Assembly (NCBI GenBank): GCA_964393205.1
Contig: CAYMSV010000003.1
Location: 34,608 to 98,607, forward strand
DNA: 64,000 nt
Source: an uncultured Pseudomonadales bacterium
GTDB taxonomy: Bacteria; Patescibacteriota; Microgenomatia; UBA1400; PJMF01
Reading direction: 5' to 3'
The notes beneath the pieces are model-generated. The model was given only the letters and a program-made list of their open reading frames with translations, did not search any database and was not told the origin of the DNA. The position numbers and the translations under genes are program-made. Below, one piece after another: positions 19,863-32,932 of the stretch (the stretch's first letter is position 1; each line of letters starts with the position of its first letter).

Positions 19863-19880
19863 TTACTTTAAAAAGTCGAG

Positions 19881-20348: not shown

Positions 20349-20480
20349 GCCTTAATTCTATACTATTTAGTCAAGAAAGATAATTCAAAGAAAATAAAAC
20401 ATTTACTTTCTATACTGTCCCATTTGTCTCATTTTGAGTATAATTAACTCTAGAAAGGTGTAGGTGGCTATGGGACACCC

Positions 20481-20510
20481 TGGTTCCAGACCCACCTGCT
20501 CCGCAATAAT
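20481..20510 (+). repeat. Direct repeat R1 (candidate att core)
   Basis: Shares GTTCCAG(A/G)CCCAnnTGCTCCGC(C)A with 31917-31949 and 32769-32801. Confidence 0.6.
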
Positions 20511-20560
20511 CCAAAAATTCTGATAGACCCGTCTAATAATGCTAAAGGTCTTGATGAATC

Positions 20561-20590
20561 TTGCTAAAAATCTCCAATTTGGAGATTTTT
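20561..20590. terminator. Palindromic hairpin, bidirectional terminator candidate
   Basis: AAAATCTCCAAATTTGGAGATTTTTT. Confidence 0.5.
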
Positions 20591-20611
20591 TAGTTTTAGA
20601 GCCCAGAATAA

Positions 20612-21442
20612 ATGATTTCTTTACTTATATTGATATATAATCTGAATCATATGAGCGATCCCAATAAGTCTGATCATAAGAAAAATGTTTCTGAATTAAT
20701 TTCTGCTGGATCAGAAATAGTGGGAGCTGGAATTGGAGGTGTTACTGGATTTTTATTTGCTGGACCAGTGGGCGCAGCTGGTGCTGGAATTGGGGGAGTC
20801 ATAGTTGCAAAAACATTGAATAAAGTCGGCCAAGAAATATCAACCAGGCTTTTATCACCTAGAGAAAAAGTAAGAGTGGGAGGAGTTATGGCTCTTTCCA
20901 CACTAGAAATAGAAAAGAGAATCTCAGAAGGAGAGACCATACGCTCTGATGGTTTTTTTGATACCAATCCCAATGGAAGATCCAATGCTGATGAAGTTGT
21001 AGAAAGTGTTCTACTCAAAAGTCAAAGAGAACCTGAAGAAAAAAAACTTCCCTATCTTGCTCATTTATATGCAAATATTGCATTCAGCGAAGAAATCAGC
21101 ACCCCAATGGCTCATCAACTTATAAAAGGTGTTAACCAACTAACATATAGACAGCTATGCATTTTAAGATTGTGTGCAATGAAAAAAATCCCACTCAGAG
21201 AAAAAGACTACAGAGAAGAGTCTTCTTTCCCAAAAGAACTTTATCAAGTTTTATATGAATGTTTTGACTTATCCTCAAAAGGATACATAAATAATGGAAG
21301 CACAATTGCTCTTGGGCTAACTGATTTAATCCCAAAAGAAATGACTCCTCAAGCATTAGGAGCTGACATTCATAATTTCTTACAACTTTGGAATATTCCC
21401 ATGGAAGACCTCCAACCGATTATAGATCAATTAAAACAATAA
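20612..21442 (+). CDS. Hypothetical protein with N-terminal glycine-zipper membrane segment
   Basis: GAGIGGVTGFLFAGPVGAAGAGIGGVIVA then soluble domain. Confidence 0.4.
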   Translation: MISLLILIYNLNHMSDPNKSDHKKNVSELISAGSEIVGAGIGGVTGFLFAGPVGAAGAGIGGVIVAKTLNKVGQEISTRLLSPREKVRVGGVMALSTLEIEKRISEGETIRSDGFFDTNPNGRSNADEVVESVLLKSQREPEEKKLPYLAHLYANIAFSEEISTPMAHQLIKGVNQLTYRQLCILRLCAMKKIPLREKDYREESSFPKELYQVLYECFDLSSKGYINNGSTIALGLTDLIPKEMTPQALGADIHNFLQLWNIPMEDLQPIIDQLKQ

Positions 21443-22726
21443 CTGTTTATTCTTAAGTATAAATTTAGTTTTTATCATCCCCAACGCTTCCTGCCTATCA
21501 TCTGCTGATCCAGTTTTAAGTACATGTTTTAGATAGTTTATTGCCATCCCTTCATCATTAATTTTAACTGCTGAATTTTCCATTTCTTCCAAATTCCCAG
21601 ACAAATATTCTTGGTGTAAAACTTCTGATCTTAGTTTATGGAATCTCTCTATATCTGCCTTAAGTTTTTTAGCAATTTTAGTCTTAACTATTTTTATATT
21701 TCCAGCATTAATGTGAGCCAAAAGTTGGCTTATCAAATCTTCCTCAGTGATATAAGGTTCATCACAATCATAATTAACTGATCTGCCACAATGATAGTAA
21801 ATGTATTTCCCATAACCCCCATATTTAAGTTTTTTGTATTTAACTTCTGCTGTAACACCTCCACCACATGATCCACAAGTACAAAGTGTTTTAAATGGAA
21901 ATTTCTTTTTATGCCAATTCTTTGGTGGCACTTGAAGTTGCTTTTGTACTTTATCCCACAATTCTTTACTGACTAAAGGTTCATGAATTCCTTTGTACCA
22001 TTCATCTCCATATTTAAACTCACCATAATAAAATGGATTTTTTAGAGTTGAATAAATTTTGCTTAAAGCCAATATCTTTCCTCTCTTTGTTTCGAACCCA
22101 ATTTCTTTAAACCATTTTCTGATTGTTCTACCACTATGTCCTTTTACAGCTACCCGTGTAAACATTTCCTTAATAACCCATGCTCTTTCAGGATCAGGTA
22201 TAACTTCACTGATTCTATTATTTTTCAAAATATTTAAATATCCAATTGGAGCTAACCCAGGTCTAATACCCATTTCACATTTAGCTTTAAGTCCTCGCTT
22301 AACATTAATCCCTCTATTATCATTTTCTAACTTCGCTTGTGAACAAAGAATCATTAATAGAAACTTTTCATTTGGATTATTTCTAAATATCTGAGATTTT
22401 GTTTTAATCTCTTGAAGCTTTCCTTGATCCATTAGATCCACCAAAGATCCTAAATCACCTGCATTACGACTTAATCTGTCAGGGGCCCAAGTAAGAATCC
22501 CATCAAAAACCCCTTTATCAATATCTTTTAAGAGTTTAATAAAAACTGGCCTTGTTCCTGATCTTTTAGCAGAATGACTCTCTTGTCTAATTTCAGTAAC
22601 ATTTAGTTGTTCACTTTCAGCTATTATCCTCATCTCTTTAATTTGAGAATCAATTGACATTGTTTGTCGTTCATCAGATTCAGAAGATTTTCTTGCGTAG
22701 AGACAATATTTTATATTTTTTTGCAT
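21431..22726 (-). CDS. Large serine recombinase (integrase/resolvase family)
   Basis: N-terminal resolvase catalytic domain YARKSS...S..Q, recombinase domain, C-terminal zinc ribbon CTCGSCGG...YYHCGR. Confidence 0.85.
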   Translation of the reverse strand: MQKNIKYCLYARKSSESDERQTMSIDSQIKEMRIIAESEQLNVTEIRQESHSAKRSGTRPVFIKLLKDIDKGVFDGILTWAPDRLSRNAGDLGSLVDLMDQGKLQEIKTKSQIFRNNPNEKFLLMILCSQAKLENDNRGINVKRGLKAKCEMGIRPGLAPIGYLNILKNNRISEVIPDPERAWVIKEMFTRVAVKGHSGRTIRKWFKEIGFETKRGKILALSKIYSTLKNPFYYGEFKYGDEWYKGIHEPLVSKELWDKVQKQLQVPPKNWHKKKFPFKTLCTCGSCGGGVTAEVKYKKLKYGGYGKYIYYHCGRSVNYDCDEPYITEEDLISQLLAHINAGNIKIVKTKIAKKLKADIERFHKLRSEVLHQEYLSGNLEEMENSAVKINDEGMAINYLKHVLKTGSADDRQEALGMIKTKFILKNKQLLF

Positions 22727-22990
22727 TCTGTTCCTTTTCTAGTAGTAGAAGGTACCGCAAAAAAAGATGAAGTCAAGTCGTGGTTGAAACATTAAAAAAG
22801 ACTGATTTATAGTTATTTTTTATTAAAAATACTCTTGATTTTCTTTGCTAAAAATCTTATAATTAAGTAGTTAAAAAAAGGTAAACTAATAGAAAATATA
22901 CTCATGGAAAAAGGTTCAAAACTAATTAAAGATAATGATAAATTAATGTCTATGGATGGTTTAAACTCTAGCCTCTTGTCAAAAGATGAG

Positions 22991-23025
22991 TGTAAATGTA
23001 AAATCGACTCGATTTTACATTTACA
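22991..23025. promoter_or_regulatory. Perfect 17-bp inverted repeat (35 bp), candidate recombinase/repressor binding site or attP-like site
   Basis: TGTAAATGTAAAATCGA-C-TCGATTTTACATTTACA, between terminase stop and recombinase start. Confidence 0.5.
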
Positions 23026-23048
23026 GTAGAATTTTCAAAAATAATTCC

Positions 23049-24479
23049 CTATAAAAAATCAATAATTGGCACTTCTTCCTCCTTTAAGTCTTCTAAAAAC
23101 TCATAAACTAATTGAGAAAATGAATCTGCTAAATCATCATATTTTTCACTTCCAAAATACAAAATTTGATTAATTAATTCTTCTGCTCCTTTTTTAGGAA
23201 ATCTAACCTTTCCATTTTTGATCTGATAAGAAGCTGATGATAATCTTTCTCTTTTATCACGACCTCCTGTTGTCAAACCTCTAACTGGTAAACCTTCTCT
23301 CTCCATACTTTGAATTAACCCTGCCTGCTGACCCGCTTCTTCAACAACAATTTCAACTGGAGCTAAATCTTTTAAAGAAAAAAACATTACTTTAACTTCT
23401 TCAATTAAATCAGGCATTCTTATTCGTTTATTTGTTGGAAACGGATGAATATATATTTTAGCTGACTTTCCTTTACCAACAACTGAACCAACAGTAATGG
23501 CTACATTATCTCCAGTACTTTTTTGACTAAAAGCAGGATCAATACTAATAATAATTCTAGAAACATTTCTTTCAGGTAATTCATCATAAAACTGTAGCCA
23601 TTCTTCTTTAACAATTTGCTCGTCATCAGCAATAATCTTCAACATATATTCTCTTTGAAAATCAGTATTAGTTACTTTGTTTTTTAATCTAACGATTGAG
23701 ACTTCATCTGGATATTTACCAAACCATAAACTCTTGCCTTCTAATAAGAGAGAGTACTCTCTATATTCACCATCAAAAGTTCCTCCCAAAATAGATCTTT
23801 TCATTCTCATCATTACTGAATCGTTATGAACCAAGTTCCCAATCATTACTACTTTGGTATTTTTATCTCCAGATGGAATTAATTCTGAATTCAAAAATTC
23901 CCAAGCCTTCTTTCTCCCTTCAGCTGTTTTTGCAGAAGCAACATCTTCAATATCATCAGCCACAATTAAATCAGGTCTAAACTGACGATGACGAAAACCT
24001 CTAATTTTTTCAGATATAGAAACGGCTGTAATACGAGCCTGTTGTTTAGTAAAAACCAAACTAGAACTACTCCATTCAGCAAGATCCTTTGGAAATGGAC
24101 CAAAATCATTTATCAAAAGCTGATTATTTTCACACTCCTGTCTAATGTTATCCAAAGCCTGTTGAGCTCTTGTCTGTGTTTGATTAACTAACACTACAAA
24201 ATTCTTTTCCTTACGACTTAAGATCATCCATAAAGGATAAATAAGCTGACAATAAGTAGACTTGGCACTTCCACGAAAAGCTACAATCACTAAAAATCTA
24301 ACAGCATCATTTTGTAAAAGCTGTAGCATCTCTTTATGAAAATCTGCTATTTCATATTCAATATAATGTGGGAAGTAAATCACAAAAAACCAAAGAATAT
24401 CCTGCTTTGCCAGCTTCTTTCTGAGTTTTTTATTTTTCCTAACTTCTAAAATTAATTCTTGTGTAATTTTTTCTTTCAT
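23049..24479 (-). CDS. terL: Phage terminase large subunit
   Basis: N-terminal ATPase (VIVAFRGSAKST Walker A-like, DDIED), C-terminal RNase-H-like nuclease (ISIDPAFS). Confidence 0.8.
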   Translation of the reverse strand: MKEKITQELILEVRKNKKLRKKLAKQDILWFFVIYFPHYIEYEIADFHKEMLQLLQNDAVRFLVIVAFRGSAKSTYCQLIYPLWMILSRKEKNFVVLVNQTQTRAQQALDNIRQECENNQLLINDFGPFPKDLAEWSSSSLVFTKQQARITAVSISEKIRGFRHRQFRPDLIVADDIEDVASAKTAEGRKKAWEFLNSELIPSGDKNTKVVMIGNLVHNDSVMMRMKRSILGGTFDGEYREYSLLLEGKSLWFGKYPDEVSIVRLKNKVTNTDFQREYMLKIIADDEQIVKEEWLQFYDELPERNVSRIIISIDPAFSQKSTGDNVAITVGSVVGKGKSAKIYIHPFPTNKRIRMPDLIEEVKVMFFSLKDLAPVEIVVEEAGQQAGLIQSMEREGLPVRGLTTGGRDKRERLSSASYQIKNGKVRFPKKGAEELINQILYFGSEKYDDLADSFSQLVYEFLEDLKEEEVPIIDFL

Positions 24480-24480
24480 T

Positions 24481-24891
24481 TCAATCCTTACTGCTCATTA
24501 AACTGAGTGCTTTTTTATAAATTTCTTTTTCTTCTTCAGTTAATTCTTCTGACTCCTCTGATTCATGAAAAAGTTTGACCCTATTCTCATAAGCCTGTCT
24601 GTGATGCTTTAACCAAAAGATTATGGCAGTCATATTTTCATCTCGTATTTGATTTATTAATTGAGACTCTGCCATATCAGATATTAGCTCTGTTCCTTCT
24701 TGTAAAGCTTTATTAGCTTCCTTAGAAAATTCAGGGTCATCCTTCCTCCAACGATAGTAGGTTGCCCTGGATATTCCTGCTTTTTTACAAGCTATTTGAA
24801 TTATTGGATTCACTTTTAATTTATCGATAATAAGTTTCTTATCATTAATAATCCTTTCCTCAATTGGAGTTAATACTTTTGTATTTGTCAT
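24481..24891 (-). CDS. HTH DNA-binding protein, probable terminase small subunit
   Basis: HTH (ACKKAGISRATYYRWRKDDPEF); position immediately upstream of terL with 1-nt gap. Confidence 0.45.
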   Translation of the reverse strand: MTNTKVLTPIEERIINDKKLIIDKLKVNPIIQIACKKAGISRATYYRWRKDDPEFSKEANKALQEGTELISDMAESQLINQIRDENMTAIIFWLKHHRQAYENRVKLFHESEESEELTEEEKEIYKKALSLMSSKD

Positions 24892-26210
24892 TGAATTAGC
24901 TTTGCTTTTTTACCTGTTAACTTTTCCCAACGATTCTTAATAACTTCTGCATAAATTGGAGATTTTTCCATGATGTTGCATCTTCTCTTCATCTTTTGAG
25001 AAGCGATTAAAGTACTACCACTACCACCAAATGGCTCTACAACTAAATCTCCACGCCTGGTTAAAACTTTAAGATAAGGGATTAAAATCTCAATTGGTTT
25101 TGTACCAAAAATAATTCCTTGTCCCGATTGTTTCTCATCACAAGCTTTAAATTCAATGAAATCAGTCGGTTGGATTTTCTTACCCTTGTTGTAACCTTCC
25201 CAGTGAGGCTTCCCGTTAATTGCAAACAAAGCCGTTTCATATTCATTCTGCAAAAGGTTATCTGATTCTGAATCTAAATCTAACTGTTTGCTTTCTGAGC
25301 TCCCAACCATAGCAATATCATGCTTTGAAAAAAACTTGTGTTGAGAAGCAAATCCTTGATGCCTATTTGGTAAATGCCAAACCAACATATTACGAACTTT
25401 CCAATGTCTTTCCATTTCTCCCCAAATAGTTCTGATGTTTTTCCAATTTTCATAAACAATAATACTAAAATCATCTTTGGCTATTTTAGAAATATTCCCC
25501 ATCCACTTTTCGGTGAAATCTGGTGGTAGAACGTCTGTCTCAAGATATTTTCTATTTTTCTTAGCCCCAAATCCTTCAGTTGGTTTTCCATGTCTTTTAG
25601 CTTTTAGATAATCAAGAATGTAGGGAGGATCAGTCAGACACATATCTGCTTTTTCTTTATTCATTAATTTAAGAAAATCAGCTTCAATTGTTGAGTCTCC
25701 ACACATTAACTTGTTTTCACCCAGCTGCCAAACATCACCTTTTTTAATTTTGATTTCATCTATTTTTAATTTCTGGAGTTCTTTCTCAAGATCAAAATCT
25801 TCTGGATTATCTTCTGTTAGAAAAACTTCATCTATCTCTTCACTAGAAAATCCAACATCAGAAAGAAAAGCCTCATCAAACTCAGCCAATAAATCAAAGT
25901 CCCAGTCACCAGTATTTTTATTAAGCCTTAGATTGAGTTCTTTTTCTTTTTTAATCTCTGGAAGATTGATGAAAACCACAGGAACTTCTTTAAATCCCAA
26001 ATCCTTTAAAACTTTTAAGCGAAAATGGCCTCCTATAACTATATTCTTTCTACCTGGAGCTGAGTTAACTAAGAGTGGATCAACAACTCCAAAACGCGAG
26101 ATGCTTTCTTTAAGATCATTGCTAGCTTCTTCACTCCAAGTTCTTGGGTTATATGGAGCTGGATTTAACTCTGATACTTTAATTTCTACTATATTCAGTT
26201 TATTTTTCAT
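24888..26210 (-). CDS. ParB-like nuclease domain fused to N6-adenine/N4-cytosine DNA methyltransferase
   Basis: N-terminal ParB motif (VSELNPAPYNPR), DPPY catalytic motif (CLTDPPYILD), AdoMet motif FGGSGST. Confidence 0.8.
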   Translation of the reverse strand: MKNKLNIVEIKVSELNPAPYNPRTWSEEASNDLKESISRFGVVDPLLVNSAPGRKNIVIGGHFRLKVLKDLGFKEVPVVFINLPEIKKEKELNLRLNKNTGDWDFDLLAEFDEAFLSDVGFSSEEIDEVFLTEDNPEDFDLEKELQKLKIDEIKIKKGDVWQLGENKLMCGDSTIEADFLKLMNKEKADMCLTDPPYILDYLKAKRHGKPTEGFGAKKNRKYLETDVLPPDFTEKWMGNISKIAKDDFSIIVYENWKNIRTIWGEMERHWKVRNMLVWHLPNRHQGFASQHKFFSKHDIAMVGSSESKQLDLDSESDNLLQNEYETALFAINGKPHWEGYNKGKKIQPTDFIEFKACDEKQSGQGIIFGTKPIEILIPYLKVLTRRGDLVVEPFGGSGSTLIASQKMKRRCNIMEKSPIYAEVIKNRWEKLTGKKAKLIQ

Positions 26211-26318
26211 AAACTTTCCTTTACTAAAAGATCTTTTTGATACTAATTTGATCTTCTAATAATATTGTAAAAATATTCTTTGGTTTTTTTCCCAAATTGC
26301 TTTTTTAGCCTGATAATA

Positions 26319-26348
26319 AAAAAGCACTCTCAATTGAGAGTGCTTAAA
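26319..26348 (-). terminator. Rho-independent terminator for minus-strand gene 26390-26812
   Basis: GCACTCTCAATTGAGAGTGC palindrome flanked by A/T runs. Confidence 0.6.
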
Positions 26349-26389
26349 AAACTTTTATTTTATAACTTAAAGTTAAAATTTAGTTAAAA

Positions 26390-26812
26390 TTATCTGTATT
26401 CTTTATCAAAATCAATAATCTCAATCTGTTCATTACCCCAAGCATCAGTATATATCAACCTATATCCACCACCATCCATTCTTGTCTCATACTCTACAGG
26501 AGTTGAAACAAAACATTCCCGGGTAATATCAAAAAAGTTTGAATCATAATTATCTAAAGATTCAAGCTTCTCAATCATTCCTTCCAAAGAAACTGGAATA
26601 GTATAAAACCAAGCTTCATATAAATTTATGACTGCCTTGTATTCTCCAAGACAAGAAACCTTAACTTGCTGTTCAGAATCCTTTAAAGCCTCTTGTTTTT
26701 TTGAAAACTTATAAAAATTAAAAGCTTCTTTAACAATTAAAACTAATACTAATATTCCAATTATTATAAATATTTTTGAAATTGGCCTTTTTATACTCAT
26801 TTTCTTAAACAT
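26390..26812 (-). CDS. Hypothetical membrane-anchored protein (140 aa)
   Basis: Single N-terminal TM helix; ORF only. Confidence 0.35.
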   Translation of the reverse strand: MFKKMSIKRPISKIFIIIGILVLVLIVKEAFNFYKFSKKQEALKDSEQQVKVSCLGEYKAVINLYEAWFYTIPVSLEGMIEKLESLDNYDSNFFDITRECFVSTPVEYETRMDGGGYRLIYTDAWGNEQIEIIDFDKEYR

Positions 26813-26921
26813 ATTCCCCTTCTATAAATGCTATTTATTAACATCATTTTATCTGTATGTCTGTGAAAATGCTAGTTATAAACTGTAGAGTCGACAACAT
26901 CATTTCATTAATCTGATATTA

Positions 26922-27152
26922 ATGAAACAAACACACAAACCAAATACAAACTTGAGAAGGAAATTTGGGAAAAGAGTTAGACAATTAAGAGATGATTTGG
27001 GATATTCACAAGAAGAACTAGGATTCAAAGCTGACCTACATAGAACTTACATTGGCTCGATAGAACGAGGAGAACAAAATGTATCTTTGGATAATATAGG
27101 AAAATTAGCTAAAGTTCTCAAGACCTCTCTTTCAGATCTTTTTGATCTATAA
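26922..27152 (+). CDS. XRE-family HTH transcriptional regulator (Cro/CI-like)
   Basis: RVRQLRDDLGYSQEELGFKADLHRTYIGSIERGEQNVSLDNIGKLAKVL. Confidence 0.8.
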   Translation: MKQTHKPNTNLRRKFGKRVRQLRDDLGYSQEELGFKADLHRTYIGSIERGEQNVSLDNIGKLAKVLKTSLSDLFDL

Positions 27153-27193
27153 ATCACCTTTAATCTAAAAATTTACAATCTATAATAACCTTT

Positions 27194-28075
27194 ATGATTG
27201 ATATACAGGTAGTTCGTGCAGTCAAAAAACAACTTGAAGAAGCCTCATCTGTTATAAAAGCAATGAAGGAAGTAAATGATTCTTATTCAAAGCAACTTAG
27301 AGCCATCTCCGAAACTATAATTAATTTCAACAAACAAGCAAAAAAAATAATATCAGAACTACCAAACCTTGATCTTTTTTTAGGGTTTGATCAGGCAGGG
27401 CTAACCCCTAATTTGGGAAAAAGTAAATCAATTCATAATGTTAAAAAGTTTATTTCAAACCTCGATAAAGGGTATGCTATTTTTTGGATTCCTAGAGCTG
27501 ATATCGTTGATGAAATTGTATTTGCTGATACCAGTAAACAGAAAAAGGAAATAATTATAGAAAACCAAAAGCTAATTCTCTCTGATTGTTTAAAAGTGGT
27601 AAAAACAATAAAAAATAATAAATTAAAAAATCATGCTGATCATTTAATGTCAGCTATTACTTGCATGGAACATGGAAATTTTAGAGCTGCTCAATCAACT
27701 GCAACAATTTGTCTTGACTCATTGATTGATGAATTAGTTGACCTAAGTGATCTAGATTCATTTAGGAAAATAAATAACAAATTAAATAAGACTGCAAATG
27801 TTTTGACAGATATTGATAAAATTCCAATTAACTATCTCTATGCTGCTCTGCAATCCAGATTAATAATCTATTTATTCCGACCATTTGACAGATTAAATCC
27901 GAATAAAATATCACATAAGTATGCAAGACACTCTAGCACTCATTCTGTTAGCAAAAGACAATATAAACCATTTAATGCCATGCAAGCTATTATGATTGCA
28001 ACATCACTACTAGCAACTACCAATAAATTAGGAAGTAACTGGTTATCAAAATTAGCATCGTATAATTCTGTATAA
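27194..28075 (+). CDS. Hypothetical protein (293 aa), unknown function
   Basis: ORF only; first gene of 4-gene unknown cassette. Confidence 0.35.
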   Translation: MIDIQVVRAVKKQLEEASSVIKAMKEVNDSYSKQLRAISETIINFNKQAKKIISELPNLDLFLGFDQAGLTPNLGKSKSIHNVKKFISNLDKGYAIFWIPRADIVDEIVFADTSKQKKEIIIENQKLILSDCLKVVKTIKNNKLKNHADHLMSAITCMEHGNFRAAQSTATICLDSLIDELVDLSDLDSFRKINNKLNKTANVLTDIDKIPINYLYAALQSRLIIYLFRPFDRLNPNKISHKYARHSSTHSVSKRQYKPFNAMQAIMIATSLLATTNKLGSNWLSKLASYNSV

Positions 28076-28089
28076 ATTACTAAACTGAA

Positions 28090-29187
28090 ATGGAAAATAG
28101 ATATCTTAAACCTAAACAATACTATATTGACCTCTACGATTTATTCACCATAAAAGAATGCCTAGATTGGTATTGGAAACTAAAAGAAGGCATGGAAAAA
28201 CACCGTGATGAACTAAAAGAAAAAGAACCTAAAACAGATTTTGATCATGAAGTTCACAAATGTTGCAGCTATGCAGTTAATGTAATAAAAGGCGAAAGAT
28301 ATCGTAGAAAGGCAGAAACCATTCAAAAATGGATAGATAAAGATAAAAAAAACCAAGACATCTTTGATAAAGCCACTCCCCACTCAGATATTCTCTGCAA
28401 AAAATGTGGAGGTAAGACCAAAATAATCCATAAAACTTTACATAGTGAAGATGAAAACAATCCAAGAATTTCTTTCATGTTTGAGTGTAAGAAATGTAAC
28501 AAAAGACAAATTTTTTATAGTGATGGTTCTCCTTGGGATTTTGAAAGGGAAAAGTGTCCTGACTGTGGAATTGAACTTAAAACAGAGTACGAAGATGATG
28601 AAAAAAATGAAATATTAATTACAACTGATTACTGTCTCAAATGTGATTATAAGAAAGTTGATGTAACTAATTTCAAAAAGAATCGGGAAGAACGAGAAGA
28701 AGAAAAACAAAAAGATGAGGCTTTACTAAAAGAATATCGTGATGAGTTTTGCTGGAATGACAAAGATGGCCAACAATATATAAGCACAATGGAAACTCTA
28801 AAAAACTTATACGAAGAAGCTGAACAACAAAAGAAAAAAGAAAAAGATCCAAATTACCAAAAAACTAAAAAACTAAAGAAACTTAAAATCAATCAACTAA
28901 AAGAACTACTTTCAGAAAAGTTAAATAAGCAAAAATATATTGATCTTCAATTTGGGAAACCAGAAATTGGAAAGTATGTTGTAGTAGATTTTACTGTTAA
29001 TGACACAAACAATGATCGATCTGAATATGATAGTAATAAACAATTAAAAAAACTAATACAGAATACATTAATCAAAACAAATTGGAGATTAATGAGTGAC
29101 GGGATTAGTTATCGCATAGGAATCTTAAGTGGAAGACTTAAGGCTTATGAAAGAGATGATGATTTAATGAAAATTATTAAAAATTAA
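28090..29187 (+). CDS. Hypothetical protein with four CxxC zinc-ribbon pairs and K/E-rich coiled-coil
   Basis: CKKCGG...CKKCNK...CPDCG...CLKCDY. Confidence 0.4.
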   Translation: MENRYLKPKQYYIDLYDLFTIKECLDWYWKLKEGMEKHRDELKEKEPKTDFDHEVHKCCSYAVNVIKGERYRRKAETIQKWIDKDKKNQDIFDKATPHSDILCKKCGGKTKIIHKTLHSEDENNPRISFMFECKKCNKRQIFYSDGSPWDFEREKCPDCGIELKTEYEDDEKNEILITTDYCLKCDYKKVDVTNFKKNREEREEEKQKDEALLKEYRDEFCWNDKDGQQYISTMETLKNLYEEAEQQKKKEKDPNYQKTKKLKKLKINQLKELLSEKLNKQKYIDLQFGKPEIGKYVVVDFTVNDTNNDRSEYDSNKQLKKLIQNTLIKTNWRLMSDGISYRIGILSGRLKAYERDDDLMKIIKN

Positions 29188-29207
29188 TTATTAATATAGA
29201 CAAAAAT

Positions 29208-30587
29208 ATGATAAAAAATAGTTCAAATTTAAAAAAATTATTGCAAAAATTCAAAGAATCTGGTTTTGAATTAATACAATCTAAAGATAAATCATATTTC
29301 TACATAAAAAATGAAAAAGAAGAAGCAAAAATACTAGAAATTAAAGATAGTGAATATATATTACATCTTTTGAAGATAGAGGAAAACAATTCTATTATTT
29401 ATCAAAAGGGTTTTAAATATTTAATTTCTGAAAAGGATTTTGATTTATTATCGATTTTGTACTTCAAAGAAAAAAAATATCAACTATCAGCTGGATGGCA
29501 ATTCAGAAGAATAAATAATCTTGGAGAGGATATTGAAAAATTAATTATTAAACAAAAATATAAACAAAAAAGAATTAACAAAAAAGGTAAAAGTCTAACA
29601 ATTTCTCCAAATATATACTCACTTATCCTTAAAGATATATGGCGTGCTGAAGATAAATCAAGAAAATATAAATCATCAGTACGAAATTATCTTTTAAATG
29701 ACCTAACTGGAGAATACTCTTCAAAAAAAATTAAAGATACTACTTCATTAAACAAAGGTGAATATGAATTCATAACACATAGATTTAATTTAAAAACAAA
29801 AAATAAACGTAAAGACTATCTTAAATACTTAAACAAAAATGACATCAATTCTCTACAATATTTATTTCTAAAAATGGTTAAAAATAAAGTTTTTGATGAC
29901 AAATATTTAAAGAAACTAAATAACTTTTTCAAAAAAGAAAATCTTAGAGAAATCATAAGTCTAGGAAATGAGATATTAAGTTTAGGTGTTACAGATTTAA
30001 GTACAAAAAAAGCAAAAGCCACAGTAAAAAAAATTACTGAAAAAAAAGTTGCAAAGCTTGAAGGTCTTTGGCAAGAATATTTTGAACAATATTTGTTATT
30101 ATTAATATTTTCTTACAAATCAATTCATCCAAAAATCAAACTAAATAATATTGATTCAGATAAAAACTATCCAGATTTCATTGGAATAAATCATTATAAT
30201 GGCTTAGATGTTATAGAGATAAAAACTCATTTAAAAAAAGCACTAACTTATGATTCGAGTCACGATAATTTTAGTTTTTCCTCTGAATTGAGCAAAGCTA
30301 TTATACAAACAACAAATTACATGGATCAAATAGTTGCAGAAAATTTCAAGAAAAGTTCTGATAAAACAAAAATAACTTCATCAATTCATGAAGAAAATTT
30401 ACATAGACCTAGAGGAATAATCATTATCTCATCTTATGAACATCTAACAACTGACATGTCATCAAGAAATAAGGATAAACTAACTAGAGATTTCACCAAA
30501 CTTAGAAATAGTCTACATAATATACAAATTCTAACCTTTGATGAAATACTTAATACAGCAAGTGACTATCTAGATAATGTTGTATAA
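29208..30587 (+). CDS. Hypothetical protein with C-terminal PD-(D/E)xK nuclease-like motif (Shedu/DUF4263-like candidate)
   Basis: C-terminal NYPDFIGINHYNGLDVIEIKTHLKK...AIIQTTNY resembles D...(D/E)xK...Q restriction-endonuclease fold. Confidence 0.35.
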   Translation: MIKNSSNLKKLLQKFKESGFELIQSKDKSYFYIKNEKEEAKILEIKDSEYILHLLKIEENNSIIYQKGFKYLISEKDFDLLSILYFKEKKYQLSAGWQFRRINNLGEDIEKLIIKQKYKQKRINKKGKSLTISPNIYSLILKDIWRAEDKSRKYKSSVRNYLLNDLTGEYSSKKIKDTTSLNKGEYEFITHRFNLKTKNKRKDYLKYLNKNDINSLQYLFLKMVKNKVFDDKYLKKLNNFFKKENLREIISLGNEILSLGVTDLSTKKAKATVKKITEKKVAKLEGLWQEYFEQYLLLLIFSYKSIHPKIKLNNIDSDKNYPDFIGINHYNGLDVIEIKTHLKKALTYDSSHDNFSFSSELSKAIIQTTNYMDQIVAENFKKSSDKTKITSSIHEENLHRPRGIIIISSYEHLTTDMSSRNKDKLTRDFTKLRNSLHNIQILTFDEILNTASDYLDNVV

Positions 30588-30611
30588 ATAAACTATATAA
30601 AATATATATTT

Positions 30612-30794
30612 ATGATAAAACCAATAAAAGTTGATGCACTGAATATGACAAATCATGCATATTTTGAATGCAAAAATTGCAATCTAAAAAGTGAGATGTT
30701 CTTAAAAAATAAAATTAGTGTTGATGAGAAAAATGATACTCAATATTTAAATACAATGCCATGTCCTAATTGCAATAAAAAGCTTGGCAAATAG
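30612..30794 (+). CDS. Small zinc-ribbon protein (60 aa)
   Basis: CKNCN...CPNCNKK. Confidence 0.3.
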   Translation: MIKPIKVDALNMTNHAYFECKNCNLKSEMFLKNKISVDEKNDTQYLNTMPCPNCNKKLGK

Positions 30795-30811
30795 TCTATA
30801 TTGTTCATGGC

Positions 30812-31681
30812 TTAATTTAAATCTTCTGGTAAGAGGCTATCAATATGCCACTCATCATTAAATAAAGCAGAATTATTTTCATTAATTCTTGAAATATCTC
30901 TATCTCCATAACTATCTTTAGTTTTTTCAAAACGACTAATTCCAAAATTAATTGCTAAAACTTCGGCAGATTTTGCTGTATTTGATAACCCAAGTTTTAT
31001 TAACTCCTCAGAACTAATCCACAAATAATATTCATGAAATTGATTTTTTTCACCAAATTGATTTGTAACCCAGAAACCACCTTGCTTACTCTTAAAACGC
31101 AAGCTAACTCGCCATGCCTTTTGAGAACTAGAGTAAGGACATGAATGTTCTGCCACTATCATGAGTCCTGGAATTAATATTTTTGAATACTTTTCTTCCC
31201 ACCAATCAGGATTTTCTATTAAACAAAATTGTTCATTTACCATTTCAAATGTAAATCTCTCTCCATCGCTAGGATTGCTACTATCAATTGTTTCTTTGAT
31301 TTTTTCTATGGCTAACTTTTCAATTTCTTCCTTTTTTAAATGATGGGAATTTAGTATGGAGATAAAAAAGATAAAACCAATAAAATCATCTTCACTTTTT
31401 TTAACAATAAATCTTGCCATTCTTTCAAAACTAGCACTTAGAGTGACAACTCCTTTCAAATCCCAATAAATTTTATAACCATGATGATTAATAGGAGTAT
31501 CATATTCCCCTAATTTTTTATTTTCCAAAAAATTCAATATTACTTTTAATTCATACCTTCGATCACCTCTGTCATTAACTCTTACAGAATTTAAAGTCCC
31601 ATTTCTATCCCAACGTCTTAAAGTTTCAGGGTGAATATTTAACATTTCTGCTGCTTCACTTATGGTAAGTAAGTTTTTCAT
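30812..31681 (-). CDS. Excisionase/MerR-family HTH protein with C-terminal unknown domain
   Basis: LTISEAAEMLNIHPETLRRWDRNGTLNSVRVNDRGDRRYE (HTH_17 excisionase-type). Confidence 0.55.
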   Translation of the reverse strand: MKNLLTISEAAEMLNIHPETLRRWDRNGTLNSVRVNDRGDRRYELKVILNFLENKKLGEYDTPINHHGYKIYWDLKGVVTLSASFERMARFIVKKSEDDFIGFIFFISILNSHHLKKEEIEKLAIEKIKETIDSSNPSDGERFTFEMVNEQFCLIENPDWWEEKYSKILIPGLMIVAEHSCPYSSSQKAWRVSLRFKSKQGGFWVTNQFGEKNQFHEYYLWISSEELIKLGLSNTAKSAEVLAINFGISRFEKTKDSYGDRDISRINENNSALFNDEWHIDSLLPEDLN

Positions 31682-31790
31682 AACTTATACTAAGTTATAC
31701 TTAATTAAACAAAATGTCAAGAGATAAAAAAGCACAACATTTTTTTAAACTGTCTCATTTGTCTTGTTTCTGTTATAAACATAATTAGAG

Positions 31791-31896
31791 GTCTCTATAG
31801 TTCAATGGATAGAATAGAGTCTTGCTTAAGATCATAAGCTTATCAGTTTGTGTTTTTAACAAGACTAAGATGGTGGTTCAATTCCACCTAGAGATA
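31791..31896 (+). tRNA. tRNA-like gene with aberrant 50-nt anticodon region (pseudo-tRNA or insertion/intron-containing tRNA)
   Basis: Acceptor GTCTCTA/TAGAGAT (G1-U72), D-arm TAGTTCAATGGATAGAAT, T-arm GGTGGTTCAATTCCACC; 7-bp stem AGTCTTG/CAAGACT encloses 35 nt. Confidence 0.4.
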
Positions 31897-31916
31897 CAAA
31901 TGTTATAACGATATAT

Positions 31917-31949
31917 GAGTTCCAGACCCATATGCTCCGCCATTTTAAT
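31917..31949 (+). repeat. Direct repeat R2 (candidate att core)
   Basis: See R1. Confidence 0.6.
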
Positions 31950-32011
31950 GTGTTTTAACAAGCCATGCAGTCATTTGTTCACTTTCCATCAATGCGTGGT
32001 ATCATTTCTTA

Positions 32012-32419
32012 ATGAGCGATAAACAATTATCTTTAATAGCTCCTTGTGGCATGAATTGTTCTTTGTGCTTAGCGTATCAAAGAGAGAAAAATCACTGCAA
32101 TGGCTGTAGAAATGAACAAAACATCAAAACCAAAACTAAGAGATTTGACAATTGCATTATTAAAAATTGTAAACTATTAAAAAACACAAAATCTGGATTT
32201 TGTTATGACTGTGATAAATTCCCATGCACCAGATTAAAACAGTTAGGTAAAAGATATAAAAATAAATATAATATGAGTATGTTAGATAATTTAGACTATA
32301 TAAAAGAAAAAGGAATTAAAGAATTTGTTGAGAAAGAAAATCTTAAATGGCAATGCTCTAAATGCAATGGATTAATGTGTGTACACAGAGAACATTGTTT
32401 AAATTGTAAGAAAAAATAA
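32012..32419 (+). CDS. Cys-rich DUF3795-like protein
   Basis: LIAPCGMNCSLCLAYQ...CNGCR pattern. Confidence 0.45.
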   Translation: MSDKQLSLIAPCGMNCSLCLAYQREKNHCNGCRNEQNIKTKTKRFDNCIIKNCKLLKNTKSGFCYDCDKFPCTRLKQLGKRYKNKYNMSMLDNLDYIKEKGIKEFVEKENLKWQCSKCNGLMCVHREHCLNCKKK

Positions 32420-32421
32420 GT

Positions 32422-32748
32422 ATGACCGTAGACGAATATTATAATAAACAGAAATCTCCTCAAAAAGAAATATGCTTGAAGTTGAGAGAAATAATTAAAA
32501 AGAAATATCCACAATATAAAGAAAGTATGTTGTGGGGAGTTCCGGTTTTTAATAACGGCTTGTTCTATATTGTATCTCTAAAAAATCATGTTAATTTAGG
32601 TTTTACTATTTCTAAGCTTACTAAAGAAGAAGAAAAATTATTTCAAGGAGGGGGTAAAACTACCAGAAAGATTGAAATAGAGAGTTTAGATCAAATAAAT
32701 AAAGCAAAAATATTAGAATTAATAGATTTTGTTATTAAAAAAACTTAA
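32422..32748 (+). CDS. DUF1801 (YdhG-like) family protein
   Basis: 108 aa; KEICLKLREIIKK...YKESMLWGVPVF. Confidence 0.4.
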   Translation: MTVDEYYNKQKSPQKEICLKLREIIKKKYPQYKESMLWGVPVFNNGLFYIVSLKNHVNLGFTISKLTKEEEKLFQGGGKTTRKIEIESLDQINKAKILELIDFVIKKT

Positions 32749-32768
32749 AAGGGAACTGTGGTTCCAGG

Positions 32769-32801
32769 CCCAGATGCTCCGCCATTAAAATATTACTTAA
32801 C
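32769..32801 (+). repeat. Direct repeat R3 (third copy of att-like core)
   Basis: TGGTTCCAGGCCCAGATGCTCCGCCATTAAAAT. Confidence 0.6.
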
Positions 32802-32932
32802 AAAAACACATTTGACAAAAAAATTCTTCCCTGCTAGGATTTCAATGATGAAATTTAATTATAAGCGAATCGGTTTAAATTGGTGGACTACCTCTTTTTG
32901 GCGGTAGTTCTTGTTGTATTTAAGAAGTGAAA

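Follow-up and report, generated by a model that had tools for sequence, protein, structure and literature searches.

Large serine recombinases canonically act on att sites that have a short central sequence in common, the arms of attP and attB being different. For the accretion of islands anchored at tRNA genes, tycheposons and SCC are the comparison cases. The attC sites of integrons carry R''/R' GTTRRRY boxes, and the established signature of tyrosine integrases is a long direct repeat extending from a T-loop-like start to an RNA gene's 3' end (cf. PMC10654092). The locus described here, lying in a 64-kb stretch of DNA that was analyzed as a whole (the window), combines tRNA-like direct repeats with a large serine recombinase, and we interpret it, with a probability of roughly 65%, as a tandem array built by accretion, in which site-specific integrative units are anchored to a tRNA-Ser(GGA) gene at its 3' end.

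Direct repeats and their tRNA-Ser-like core

The three repeat copies described in the initial annotation were shown to be real. The pattern GTTCCAGRCCCANNTGCTCCGC, with up to three mismatches allowed, matched exactly three times in the window, at 20483-20504, 31919-31940 and 32761-32782, all on the + strand, against a mean of 0.00 and a maximum of 0 in 100 dinucleotide-preserving shuffles. With the (C)A at their 3' ends counted, the copies span 20483-20506, 31919-31942 and 32761-32784 (+), with spacings of 11,436 bp and then 842 bp; the positions given previously were right within 2 nt for the first two copies and about 8 nt off for the third (32769-32801). The similarity noted upstream of the cores, at about 20412 and about 31750, was also confirmed, as the motif TGTCYSATTYGTCY occurs without mismatch at 20416-20429 and 31751-31764 and nowhere else in the window.

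Each copy constitutes the 3' half of a core of about 40 nt (consensus YTATRRSGAY-N6-GTTCCAGACCCANNTGCTCCGC), which looks like the 3' part of tRNA-Ser (T-loop, 3' strand of the acceptor, G73). Copies of it are scattered through numerous low-GC MAGs, mostly labelled as Patescibacteria; 41 distinct full-length copies share the upstream motif, the -10-like box and hairpin P1, and one contig (L042, L052, L086) places several full copies in a single genome. No Rfam family matched the module of motif, P1 and core. Homology between genomes always breaks directly after ...CCGC, and all junctions of the array lie directly 3' of this sequence, after what are positions G73 and C74 in a 3' end of the tRNA-Ser type. 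The repeats are literally 3' ends of a dispersed small-RNA-like family, an outcome that the initial annotation had named as refuting its element; it does not speak against mobility, because the dispersed family is the end module of mobile units. Furthermore, a right end of the core type also terminates other elements of the same recombinase clade (L133 and L134). The repeats, previously described as flanks typical of tyrosine-integrase insertion, are probably not target duplications of that kind; each probably forms the last stretch of its unit's own right end and mimics the 3' end of tRNA-Ser.

Three units behind tRNA-Ser(GGA)

The limits earlier assigned to the element proved too narrow, since the structure begins at a tRNA-Ser(GGA) gene (19346-19429, +; ARAGORN; 57 bits with Rfam) and includes an additional left unit, E0 (19467-20506, +). 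The tRNA gene is followed by a 37-nt trailer, CAAAGCGCCAGCCTGGCGGATGGCCCACGAGCCACCGC (19430-19466, +), with a 3' end of ...CCGC. The same trailer unit was found behind a tRNA-Ser(CGA) gene of the window, as well as in L089 and L106, where a core or a tRNA-Ser-like end precedes it. This tRNA-Ser(CGA) (13283-13369, or 13283-13404 with its 37-nt trailer ending in ...GAGCCACCGC; +; ARAGORN and Rfam) is the orthologue of a site in L129, where tRNA-Arg and tRNA-Ser(CGA) show about 85% nucleotide identity to the window and an E1-type left end is fused after ...CCCTTCCG of the tRNA-Ser(CGA). The window copy is free of the L129-type insertion; the sequence CGTCAAGCGAGC... lying 3' of its trailer also lies 3' of a core in L041, so that the site may hold something else.

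E0 is a 1.04-kb cassette carrying no recombinase. It opens with a left end termed ext-2 (19467-19495), encodes orf72 (19606-19824, +) and orf155 (19881-20348, -), neither with a Pfam family, and closes with the motif TGTCCCATTTGTCTCATTT (20416-20434), a -10-like TATAAT (20438-20443), and hairpin P1 plus core (20457-20506) containing repeat copy 1. The hairpin folds better than shuffled sequences (dG -26 kcal/mol, z -3.7). An orthologous unit in L093 was 80.7% identical in nucleotides to 19537-20506, and the homology ends exactly at 20506, the last base of copy 1; its left end is the same ext-2 behind a different ...CCCGC end, and its downstream genes (MGMT-like, BacA) are unlike those of the window. 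In addition, the variable dinucleotide CC of copy 1 pairs with the local 5' strand here and in L093, which argues that E0 has this copy of its own and did not receive it from E1.

E1 (20507-31942; 11,436 bp) is the unit carrying the recombinase. Its left end, termed the block (AATAATCCAAAAATTCTGATAGACCCGTCT...CTTGATGAATCTTGCTAAA; 20507-20610, +), includes a terminator-like hairpin (20566-20590) and is followed by ORF276 (20612-21442, +), which matched nothing in Pfam, PHROGs or PADLOC. The large serine recombinase (21431-22726, -) comprises Resolvase, Recombinase and Zn_ribbon_recom domains (PHROG 95 integrase, 2.8e-62) and aligns to the SPbeta SprA, TP901-1 and A118 integrases, including the N-terminal R-x-S motif. 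Next to it are encoded TerL (23049-24479, -; PHROG 38, 2.1e-77; weak Terminase_6C), a TerS-like HTH protein (24481-24891, -; PHROG 309 and other terS families; HTH_Tnp_1_2, Sf6_terminase), a fusion of ParB_N with an N6_N4 DNA methyltransferase (24888-26210, -; Pfam; PHROG 498, 1e-82), orf140 (26390-26812, -), an XRE regulator (26922-27152, +; HTH_3, 1e-15) and orf293 (27194-28075, +); orf140 and orf293 had no family in Pfam, PHROGs or PADLOC. A cargo region (28090-30794, +) consists of orf365, without a family match, the defence gene for a Shedu SduA-type nuclease (29208-30587; SduA_C, 4.7e-20; SduA by PADLOC) and a 60-aa ORF. The last gene (30812-31681, -) encodes a 289-aa MerR/HTH_17 protein with an excisionase-type N-terminus (Pfam MerR and HTH_17; weak PHROG excisionase), whose PDB match spans only the 45-aa HTH; this protein is a candidate regulator or directionality factor.

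The right-end module of E1 (31751-31942, +) is composed of the motif TGTCTCATTTGTCT (31751-31764), a -10-like TATAAA, a tRNA-like gene and core #2 (31901-31942) with repeat copy 2. The tRNA-like gene (31791-31896), located just 5' of the copy, has an insert of 32-38 nt and scored 46.6 bits with the Rfam tRNA model, being read by aragorn -i as Leu(taa) with a 32-nt insert. A covariance model of the right-end module gave 34.9 bits at 31881-31941. Besides the core, this right end carries a box resembling a promoter and a 5' strand that pairs.

Pfam and PHROGs bore out the gene content reported before, and no capsid, portal or tail family matched in the element. The Shedu gene and the tRNA-like gene are additions to the initial annotation. 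The GC content of E1 (24-33%, against 33-37% in the flanks), its reversed GC skew and the recurrence of its module uphold the view of the DNA from copy 1 to copy 2 as a foreign, phage-derived integrative element. The module of ParB-methylase, TerS, (TerL), XRE and recombinase was found in 10 further metagenomic loci (L130, L131, L133, L134, L135, L137, L142, L147, L148, L150). E1 is a phage-derived island or satellite-like element that has kept TerL/TerS, the ParB-methylase and regulators, with Shedu as cargo and no virion genes. Among contigs carrying the flanking proteins, neither an empty site nor an excised circle was found for E1; all of the 21 and 24 population contigs with these proteins whose sequence was read appear to carry it (10 of the 10 listed for each do), so that E1 looks fixed and may be inactive, and any present-day activity of the array would be presumptive. 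The predicted attB-like junction is core #1 joined to CATTTTAATG..., and the predicted circular junction is core #2 joined to AATAATCC....

The segment between copies 2 and 3 was indeed found to be a further small unit in tandem, E2 (31943-32784, +), an 842-bp cassette again carrying no recombinase. It contains genes for DUF3795 (32012-32419) and DUF1801 (32422-32748), both by Pfam, and core #3 (about 32745-32784; covariance model 19 bits, E 0.05) with repeat copy 3; the upstream motif is absent before this core. Ordinary genes follow, beginning with a PALP enzyme (32927-34228).

Mobile ends and the recombinase clade

Cassettes with such ends are mobile. An 895-bp flavodoxin and cupin cassette, recombinase-less, with ext-2 on its left and a core on its right, was 99.2-99.9% identical in three species-representative MAGs, standing behind a tRNA-Ser end in L114 and, in L013 and L062, behind further cores. 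In two of the three pairwise comparisons the limits of homology lie no more than 5 nt from the two junctions after ...CCGC; in the third it runs about 20 nt longer at the left, since a core precedes the cassette in both genomes. Other small units (0.8-1 kb) carry one or two genes each, including GNAT, HD, DUF952, DUF3795 and DUF1801. In 50 of 65 cases the gene 3' of the core has the same orientation as the core, and L077 contains four cores in 1.1 kb, with one empty unit of 53 nt. Besides cores, ext-2 follows genuine tRNA-Ser ends (L038, L076, L114) and the trailer; no recombinase was seen in the 8-kb stretches around ext-2-type cassettes.

Core and block are contiguous in the window (...CCCACCTGCTCCG joined to CAAtaatccAAAAATTCTGATAGACC...) and at six other places, and the block follows ...CCGC at 12 further places in other loci. 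In L130 and L033 it stands behind partial tRNA-Ser-like 3' ends, and in L129, as identified by sequence reading, behind the genuine tRNA-Ser(CGA) (...GGGTTCGAGTCCCACCCCTTCCG joined to CAAcagttGAAAAGTTTTGATAGACC..., then an ORF, then the recombinase). The block adjoins a recombinase gene in these three loci and the window; it also precedes genes that look ordinary (P-type ATPase, MFS, GrpB), in 8-kb stretches that showed no recombinase, and could have another role.

With the recombinase gene set in + orientation, 13 of 45 related loci were shown by ARAGORN to have a convergent tRNA gene 0.1-2.1 kb 3' of it, namely tRNA-Ser (L129, recombinase 85% identical in amino acids; L134), tRNA-Gln (L143, L144, L149, L150), tRNA-Asp (L151) or tRNA-Leu (L156, L158, L159, L161, L162, L165). 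Counting L157, whose Leu-type T-loop and acceptor match came from the motif scan only, a tRNA-like end lies downstream in 14 of the 20 loci whose 3' sequence is 600 nt or longer, and none was found in the other six; in L133 and L164 a tRNA-Ser lies farther off (4.6 and 6.4 kb). In the Leu-clade, the tRNA-type 3' end is located 580-607 nt past the recombinase gene in all seven loci, with GCACCA joined to TAGAGAAC in six and to TAGACTAT in L162. Moreover, L133 and L134 (recombinases 65-66% identical in amino acids) contain spans of about 14 and 11 kb that extend from tRNA-Ser fused to a left end termed block-2, at the recombinase side, to motif, P1 and core at the far side. Both ends are conserved between the two, and L133 has an extra junction of partial tRNA and block-2 within its span. 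The combination of direct repeats with a serine recombinase, formerly considered odd, largely ceases to be so, as this clade regularly adjoins tRNA 3' ends and the repeat is a likeness of the element's own arm to a tRNA-like target arm.

Proposed mechanism and alternative explanations

The array would read tRNA-Ser, 37-nt trailer, E0, E1, E2 and ordinary chromosome, every unit beginning with one of a small set of conserved left ends and closing with a core as its right end. The E1 recombinase, the likely responsible enzyme, would join an attP of core and block to an attB of a tRNA-Ser-type 3' end and the sequence following it, strand exchange presumably falling at the junction. With an element arm mimicking the target arm, integration would leave a new target-like site at the right end, into which further units could insert. 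In the presumed order of insertions E1 would have entered the core of E0, small units lacking a recombinase, E0 and E2 among them, would have been moved in trans, and the three repeats would be the right arms of successive units rather than a duplicated target. The proposed left arms of attP and attB are nearly the same (20 of 22 nt), a poor fit to the textbook discrimination between attP and attB by large serine recombinases. Dyad symmetry is weak, with peaks of 7.7-8.1 of 22 pairs at the core-block junction and 9.8 of 24 at the core-ext-2 junction, about 5.5-6 being expected by chance.

This weak symmetry, unlike that expected of a serine-recombinase site, together with repeats running from a T-loop-like start to an RNA-type 3' end, would suit a classical tyrosine-integrase island, in which a small tRNA-like gene had its 3' end duplicated to give the 22-24-nt repeats as attL and attR, the integrase is lost or acts from elsewhere in the genome, and the serine recombinase is a passenger. 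We consider this very unlikely, given that no tyrosine recombinase was found among the tested ORFs of the window between 16.7 and 36.4 kb or among Pfam families with at least two members in 113 ORFs near cores, that the serine recombinase clade tracks the 3' ends of four tRNA species at fixed distances, and that the CC pairing in the window and L093 argues for a copy native to E0. An integron-like cassette system was judged improbable as well; there, core and left end would form an attC-like folded site for an unidentified recombinase, and E1 would be a large passenger whose own recombinase serves E1 alone or nothing. The small units with one or two accessory genes and a conserved bounding site, the co-orientation after the core, the L077 cluster and the lack of a recombinase in the 8-kb stretches around small units all resemble such a system, but a tyrosine recombinase of the IntI type was not found, the core is devoid of the GTTRRRY boxes, block-type ends adjoin the serine recombinase in four places, and the arrays begin at a tRNA gene rather than at an attI beside an integrase.

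The conserved module in 41 copies, its folding and its multiplicity within one genome would also be expected of a host family of truncated tRNA-Ser-like RNAs with their own promoter, undescribed in view of the Rfam result, whose paralogues happen to lie in a variable region, the intervening DNA not having entered through recombination at the repeats. Such a family is unlikely in light of the many homology breaks exactly at the last base of the core, the near-identical (up to 99.9%) core-ended cassette in three species with unrelated flanks, the core lying at that end of the L133 and L134 spans which is farther from the recombinase, and identical left-end types behind genuine tRNA-Ser genes and behind cores. 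We regard it as highly improbable that core and block make up one continuous chromosomal RNA of about 170-250 nt, either non-coding or a 5' leader, with E1 starting at about 20611 and copies 2 and 3 being decayed duplicates. Their contiguity, often directly ahead of an ordinary gene in the same orientation (P-type ATPase in L046, MFS in L042, GrpB in L016), the terminator-like hairpin ending the window block, and a conserved long-range helix in the block with compensating differences (by eye) would accord with it. The block, however, equally follows genuine tRNA-Ser, partial tRNA-Ser-like ends, the trailer and unrelated ...CCGC ends, which marks it as a module joining at ...CCGC and not a fixed 3' part of a core RNA, and it stands beside recombinase genes in L129, L130, L033 and the window.

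The tandem accretion array accordingly remains our preferred explanation. In this reading the locus represents island accretion at a tRNA gene in a form that uses a serine recombinase, with tycheposons and SCC for comparison.

A probable tandem array anchored on tRNA-Ser(GGA)

The pattern GTTCCAGRCCCANNTGCTCCGC, of which no copy would be expected by chance, was matched three times in the window, all on the + strand, with starts at 20483, 31919 and 32761 and thus at successive spacings of 11,436 and 842 bp. The three-copy direct repeat described in the initial annotation was thereby borne out; its start coordinates were correct to within 2 nt for copies 1 (20483–20506) and 2 (31919–31942) and shifted by approximately 8 nt for copy 3 (32761–32784). 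A second motif reported as shared by both flanks, TGTCYSATTYGTCY, was likewise matched without mismatch at 20416 and 31751 only. Meanwhile, the bounds originally given to the element (20481–32801) proved too small, as the structure is larger and is anchored on tRNA-Ser(GGA) at 19346–19429.

This tRNA gene is followed by a 37-nt trailer ending in ...CCACCGC, which is shared by tRNA-Ser(CGA), and then by ATCCTGGGATTTGAACTATAGCGAC, a conserved left-end sequence of a second type (ext-2). In related loci from MAGs and metagenomes (L-numbers), ext-2 was found behind genuine tRNA-Ser ends (L038, L076, L114), behind cores, the approximately 40-nt sequences of which each repeat copy is the 3′ half, and behind other ...CCGC ends. 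The stretch from ext-2 through copy 1 constitutes a 1.04-kb unit, E0 (19467–20506), comprising orf72, orf155 and a module with the first core. Its closest relative, L093, contains the same unit (80.7% nucleotide identity over window positions 19537–20506), also with ext-2 at the left; the homology ceases precisely with the final base of copy 1, and on either side the unit has neighbors other than those in the window. From this unit and its breakpoints in L093, the order in the window was deduced to be tRNA-Ser(GGA) with its trailer, E0, E1 (20507–31942), E2 (31943–32784) and chromosome, with all array junctions falling after ...CCGC. The left neighbor of E1 is the tRNA-Ser-like core of copy 1, and the genuine tRNA-Ser(GGA) lies 1.05 kb upstream. 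The sequences after copies 2 and 3 (CCATTTTAATGTGTTTTAACAA at 31943–31966 and CCATTAAAATATTACTTAACAA at 32785–32808) agree at 81% over 43 nt including the core, so that E2 has a left end similar to the chromosomal flank.

The trailer, C(C/A)AAGCG...CCTGGCGGATGGCCNNCGAGCCACCGC, 37 nt in length and ending in ...CCGC, was observed at window positions 13370–13404 and 19430–19466 and in L089 and L106, directly behind tRNA-Ser genes, cores and further tRNA-like ends. Fused element ends may have left it as a minimal remnant, or it may be native to the tRNA as its trailer. In addition, CGTCAAGCGAGC follows ...CCGC both at 13405–13416, behind tRNA-Ser(CGA) with its trailer, and behind the core of L041. 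It may represent a further conserved type of left end, so that an island may be present after 13405 as well.

Pfam and PHROGs searches of E1 recovered the genes previously listed between copies 1 and 2, namely those for a large serine recombinase, TerL, TerS, a ParB-methylase fusion, XRE and a MerR/excisionase-type protein, together with a Shedu (SduA) defense gene beyond that list; the two small genes read between copies 2 and 3 were found there as DUF3795 and DUF1801. The 11.4-kb segment shows a reversed GC skew and has a GC content of 24–33%, that of the flanks being 33–37%. The 431-aa recombinase carries, in order, the Pfam domains Resolvase (1e-20), Recombinase (4e-17) and Zn_ribbon_recom (3e-8), matches PHROG 95 (integrase) and, when aligned to SPbeta SprA, shows the Y-x-R-x-S motif in register, so that its predicted domain organization is that of the large serine recombinases (serine integrases). 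No capsid, portal or tail family was detected in E1 with Pfam and PHROGs, TerL and TerS being the sole virion or packaging matches, and four ORFs (276, 140, 293 and 365 aa) received no family assignment; lacking capsid, portal and tail genes, E1 does not qualify as an intact prophage. PDB sequence searches with orf293, orf365 and the 289-aa MerR-type protein returned nothing informative. Scans of viral contigs with the recombinase and TerL gave essentially no matches, and a 22-mer pattern of the repeat matched three times in these contigs, one match being a real module (L117) and the other two looking like chance. Because the module of ParB-methylase, TerS, (TerL), XRE and recombinase recurs in 10 loci, E1 was assigned to a recurrent family of phage-derived islands.

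The earlier interpretation stands for a mobile element between copies 1 and 2 and a tandem remnant between copies 2 and 3; the part that took the repeats for target duplications probably does not. The comparison of related genomes it had proposed yielded no empty site for E1 itself in the source population: the contigs listed through two flanking proteins (10 each of 21 and 24) all carry E1, which appears fixed in its population. No excised circle of E1 was found.

The core and the right-end module

The repeat resembles a tRNA 3′ end: GGTTCCAGACC corresponds to a T-loop and TGCTCC to an acceptor strand, after which come G and C(C)A. ARAGORN called nothing at any of the three copies, and Rfam searches at E ≤ 10 gave no tRNA or tmRNA match at 20300–20700 and none at the cores of 18 loci; having an acceptor-like stem and T-loop-like UUCCAGA without D or anticodon arm, its hairpin does not amount to a cloverleaf. 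Comparison with the two tRNA-Ser genes of the window, GGGTTCGAATCCCTTCACCTCCG and GGGTTCGAGTCCCGCCCCTTCCG, indicated that the core is, by its sequence, a look-alike of the tRNA-Ser T-arm, acceptor strand and G73 and a copy of neither gene, 15 of 24 nt of the repeat being identical to the anchoring tRNA-Ser(GGA).

Copy 1 belongs to a hairpin (dG −26 kcal/mol, z −3.7) as its 3′ half; the 5′ strand GGTGTAGGTGG pairs with CCACCTGCTCC, and upstream there are a -10-like TATAAT and the motif TGTCCCATTTGTCTCATTT. At its variable dinucleotide, copy 1 has CC, which pairs with the local 5′ strand in the same way as in L093, whereas TA in copy 2 and GA in copy 3 showed poorer predicted pairing. Because copy 1 pairs locally and the other two less well, these observations suggested that copy 1 is native to E0 and that strand exchange occurred 3′ of the dinucleotide, in or next to ...CCGC. 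Covariation in this hairpin (P1) was weak, with six double changes, a count reached in 8 of 500 shuffles, in a test limited by the fixed 3′ strand of the search pattern.

In a scan with one genome per species, the 22-mer was present in 104 stretches. The high-GC matches look like chance, since they have no upstream motif and lie in unrelated sequence, and the low-GC matches come mostly from MAGs labelled Patescibacteria, Microgenomates, Paceibacterota or Saccharibacteria and from some binchicken MAGs with doubtful labels. L093 and many binchicken MAGs titled 'uncultured Pseudomonadales' or 'Gammaproteobacteria' have 29–43% GC and the same module as Patescibacteria-labelled MAGs, and the titles of those records are probably unreliable for taxonomy. 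Common to the low-GC matches is the extended core of about 40 nt, YTATRRSGAY-N6-GTTCCAGACCCANNTGCTCCGC, and the upstream motif, -10-like box and pairing 5′ strand were also found in 41 distinct core copies.

The right-end module exceeds a mere 40-bp site: TGTCYCATT occurs in it twice as a direct 9-mer, and it also has a -10-like box and an acceptor-like stem formed with a 5′ strand. With its 5′ acceptor strand, T-loop-like UUCCAGA, 3′ acceptor strand and G73, it is best described, from sequence features, as an anticodon-less mini tRNA-Ser gene that faces outward, in the direction of the following unit. The module may be the relic of a captured tRNA gene or, alternatively, a functional outward promoter with a processing signal; no Rfam family matched it, and motif, promoter, hairpin and core together may constitute a new tRNA-derived RNA. 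In E1, whose right-end module spans 31751–31942, the place of the 5′ strand is occupied by a tRNA-like gene at 31791–31896 (Rfam tRNA, 46.6 bits), in which an insertion of 32–38 nt in the anticodon loop lengthens the anticodon stem into a long hairpin. It was called as Leu(taa) with an insert at 33/34 by aragorn -i and not called by default ARAGORN, and the long variable arm typical of bacterial tRNA-Leu is absent.

Several assignments to known RNAs were rejected. A tmRNA or the 3′ end of a two-piece tmRNA, prompted by ...GGAC...UUCCAGA...GCUCCGCCA, was negative in ARAGORN and Rfam; the block, the conserved left end of E1, has no plausible tag frame, and pairing of the 5′ strand with the 3′ strand is in cis. 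Rfam was also negative for SRP, 6S, RNase P, group I/II introns and omega/bridge-RNA scaffolds, and the Pfam searches showed no associated TnpB, IscB, IS110 or reverse-transcriptase genes. As a general stable-RNA promoter, TGTCYCATTTGTCY was dismissed, occurring just twice in the window and being absent before the three ordinary tRNA genes, as was the block as cis-regulator of one conserved gene, the genes downstream being unrelated.

Other structures were noticed beside the cores. A second tRNA-like right-end family, GGTTCTAAC...(A)CCTCCGC or ...TCCCGC, in L021, L093 (3003–3029), L106 and L108, occupies the same kind of junction and is followed by block or ext-2. In L022, L052, L035, L038, L059 and L091, the core is followed by a longer, apparently structured sequence in which UCCGCC pairs with GGCGGA around a variable hairpin, ending in ...CCUUCCGCC(A) in L022, L052 and L091; these may be further tRNA-like modules. 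Downstream of the core or tRNA-Ser in L026, L027 and L065, small ORFs starting MxYVYIL..., by eye GIY-YIG-type nuclease-like, are preceded by a CTTCG...GGCGGAC hairpin directly behind the tRNA-Ser or core end.

Recombinase clade, element ends and small cassettes

A metagenome scan with the E1 recombinase recovered 45 loci. With the recombinase placed on the + strand, ARAGORN called a convergent tRNA gene 0.1–2.1 kb downstream of it in 13 loci: tRNA-Ser in L129 (85% amino acid identity) and L134, tRNA-Gln in L143, L144, L149 and L150, tRNA-Asp in L151, and tRNA-Leu in L156, L158, L159, L161, L162 and L165. Together with L157, where the motif scan alone found a Leu-type T-loop and acceptor match, a tRNA or tRNA-type 3′ end was present near the recombinase in 14 of the 20 loci having at least 600 nt downstream; more distant tRNA-Ser genes occur in L133 (4.6 kb) and L164 (6.4 kb). 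In the Leu clade, the tRNA-type 3′ end lies 580–607 nt past the recombinase gene in 7/7 loci, with the junction (slash) GCACCA/TAGAGAAC in six and GCACCA/TAGACTAT in L162. The clade thus displays the integrase beside a tRNA 3′ end that marks tRNA-targeting islands. Direct repeats of the tRNA 3′ end of at least 18 nt were not found around the elements in L129, L150, L165 and L134; L133 has a 106-nt repeat covering a partial tRNA end and block-2, a further left-end type, and L151 a 38-nt candidate pair without overlap with the tRNA.

At the left junction of L129, ...GGGTTCGAGTCCCACCCCTTCCG/CAAcagttGAAAAGTTTTGATAGACCCTTCT...GGGGCTTGCTAAA, tRNA-Ser(CGA) is joined to the same block of about 100 nt that stands behind copy 1 at 20507–20610, followed by an ORF and the recombinase. 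Because its tRNA-Arg and tRNA-Ser(CGA) are orthologues of the window genes at 12944 and 13283, the window has the L129 site without an L129-type insertion; for this 85%-related element, an orthologous site lacking that insertion thus exists in the window's own tRNA-Ser(CGA) locus. Elsewhere the block at times stands in front of ordinary genes, and the sequence examined there contains no recombinase. The recombinases of L133 and L134 are 65–66% identical to that of E1, and their spans of approximately 14 and 11 kb extend from tRNA-Ser/block-2, beside the recombinase, to a far end with motif, -10 box, P1 and core, with a second partial-tRNA/block-2 junction inside L133. Both ends are conserved between these otherwise mosaic loci, which identifies the core module as the right end of such elements. 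A partial tRNA-like repeat at the far end, with extra copies marking tandem units, was found in the window (copies 1–3) and in L133, L134, L033, L039, L077 and L089.

The same ends delimit much smaller units. An 895-bp cassette of flavodoxin and cupin genes, with ext-2 at the left, a core at the right and no encoded recombinase, is 99.2–99.9% identical in three species-representative MAGs (L013, L062, L114) and 80% identical in L044. Its homology ends within 5 nt of both ...CCGC junctions in two of three pairwise comparisons, the third running about 20 nt further left because both left neighbors are cores; immediately to its left, L114 has a tRNA-Ser end and L013 and L062 have other cores, and the flanks are unrelated. 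Further small inter-core units carry HD, DUF952 and GNAT genes, and L077 (about 2089–3199, − strand) has four cores in 1.1 kb with ext-2 after each, including a geneless 'empty' unit of 53 nt (ext-2 plus core). Past the core, the first gene, at a median distance of 115 nt, had the same orientation as the core in 50 of 65 cases, a modest bias as the upstream gene was co-oriented too (36/55). Among 113 ORFs of 290–545 aa near cores, SMODS (CBASS-type cyclase) was commonest with five members, and AGS_C had three and Shedu two; defense genes were frequent near cores (L011–L114 ORFs).

Probable accretion by a serine recombinase and its alternatives

We consider it probable, at roughly two chances in three, that the array formed by serine-recombinase-mediated accretion. 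In this mechanism, attP would consist of the core and left end and attB of a tRNA-Ser-type 3′ end with its flank, and integration would re-create the target at the right end of the element, whose own arm is a mimic of the target's; units would thus stack, one core being left by each. The oddity noted initially, direct repeats beside a serine recombinase, would thereby be removed. The predicted circular attP junction of E1 is ...GTTCCAGACCCATATGCTCCGC/AATAATCCAAAAATTCTGATAGACC, and the predicted repaired site after its excision is ...GGTTCCAGACCCACCTGCTCCGC/CATTTTAATGTGTTTTAACAAGCC. Serine integrase att sites are about 40–50 bp long, with imperfect inverted half-sites and a non-palindromic central dinucleotide, and attP and attB differ in both arms. 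Dyad scans at or near the junctions gave weak peaks only, the CC of ...CCGC being a possible central dinucleotide, and, unusually for serine integrases, the putative attP and attB have almost the same left arm. These features weaken the accretion reading, as do the failure to find an empty site or circle for E1 and the blocks in front of ordinary genes.

Four rival explanations are each considered unlikely. The array could have been made by a tyrosine integrase that has since been lost; the tRNA 3′-end habit is usually credited to such enzymes. In Mycobacterium, for instance, tRNA genes are used by tyrosine integrases and serine integrases go elsewhere (PMC10654092). Among the 113 ORFs near cores, no tyrosine integrase occurred in the families with at least two members. 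The repeats might also be a host RNA gene family; similarity between core-bearing loci ends directly after ...GCTCCGC in every comparison. Core and block might be a single RNA; the block is joined to a core in the window and at six further places, and equally to partial tRNA-Ser-like 3′ ends (L130, L033) and other ...CCGC ends. An integron-like system run by another enzyme would likewise give small, mostly co-oriented accessory-gene units ending in a conserved site, with identical cassettes in different arrays. Unlike in integrons, there is no IntI, attI or attC architecture, the anchor is a tRNA gene, and the sole recombinase linked to the ends is of the serine type; an integron proper was rejected, as the ORFs tested yielded no tyrosine recombinase and the core has no GTTRRRY/RYYYAAC pairs.

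Accretion by a serine recombinase has several known counterparts. The tycheposons of Prochlorococcus insert site-specifically at tRNA genes, with partial tRNA flanks and tandem stacks, in islands full of remnants and incomplete tRNAs; terS is found in some, which resemble PICIs, cargo in others, and a large serine recombinase replaces the tyrosine recombinase in 27 of 937 (bioRxiv 10.1101/2020.12.28.424599). The present loci share tandem tRNA-anchored units with partial tRNA-like ends, but have a serine-type recombinase throughout the sampled clade and a Patescibacteria-type host genome; moreover, their 'partial tRNA' is not copied from the local tRNA but is a distinct sequence kept across many MAGs, usually with upstream motif, -10-like box and pairing 5′ strand, and recombinase-less cassettes of 0.8–1 kb with the same ends move between species. 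In SCCmec/SCC and the Enterococcus cassette chromosome, Ccr large serine recombinases direct insertion to a conserved gene's 3′ end, and SCC elements have flanking direct repeats of 15–18 bp, composite arrays with at least three repeats and recombinase-less pseudo-elements mobilisable in trans. Serine-recombinase arrays, at least three direct repeats and recombinase-less units are common to both, whereas here the target is a tRNA-Ser-type 3′ end rather than rlmH, a single recombinase gene replaces the ccrAB pair, E1 is phage-derived (TerL, TerS), and the repeat is longer and part of a tRNA-like module. ICE/CIME accretion-mobilisation (ICESt1/ICESt3) combines an autonomous element with non-autonomous units keeping only att sites, regenerated at the array end, through tyrosine integrases and conjugation modules; the tandem accretion of autonomous and att-only units is similar, but conjugation genes are absent from the array. 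PICI-type satellites combine an integrase, a master repressor, a replication module and terS or capsid-redirection genes within about 10–15 kb and depend on a helper phage. E1 agrees with PICI-type satellites or defective prophages in its size (about 11 kb), integrase, XRE, MerR/excisionase-type protein, TerS, defense cargo and lack of capsid and tail genes, but differs from PICI in having TerL, in showing no recognised primase/replication module or capsid-remodelling genes, and in having no known helper. By analogy, the locus resembles a serine-recombinase version of already known tRNA-anchored accretion islands.

A more far-reaching reading, which we regard as rather unlikely, is a tRNA-Ser-anchored, serine-recombinase-driven cassette system in Patescibacteria-type genomes, whose promoter-equipped, anticodon-less mini-tRNA-Ser end module would be transcribed outward and cut at the junction by tRNA-processing enzymes. 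If this were true, the module would both offer the next unit a landing site and provide the genes of the next cassette with promoter and processing signal. Such a system would be functionally analogous to an integron, with a tRNA mimic and a serine recombinase as its components.

The mobile elements of Patescibacteria (CPR) are poorly charted, and the window locus with about 170 related loci defines recurrent phage-derived islands with serine integrases beside tRNA 3′ ends (Ser, Gln, Leu, Asp). Accretion would give a concrete reason for long 'direct repeats' in serine-recombinase islands, the element's own arm mimicking the target, and the precise predicted att sequences may interest those seeking serine integrases for genome engineering. 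The tiny recombinase-less cassettes, 99.9% identical across species, point to an exchange route for accessory and defense genes (Shedu, CBASS-type SMODS) in these minimal-genome organisms.
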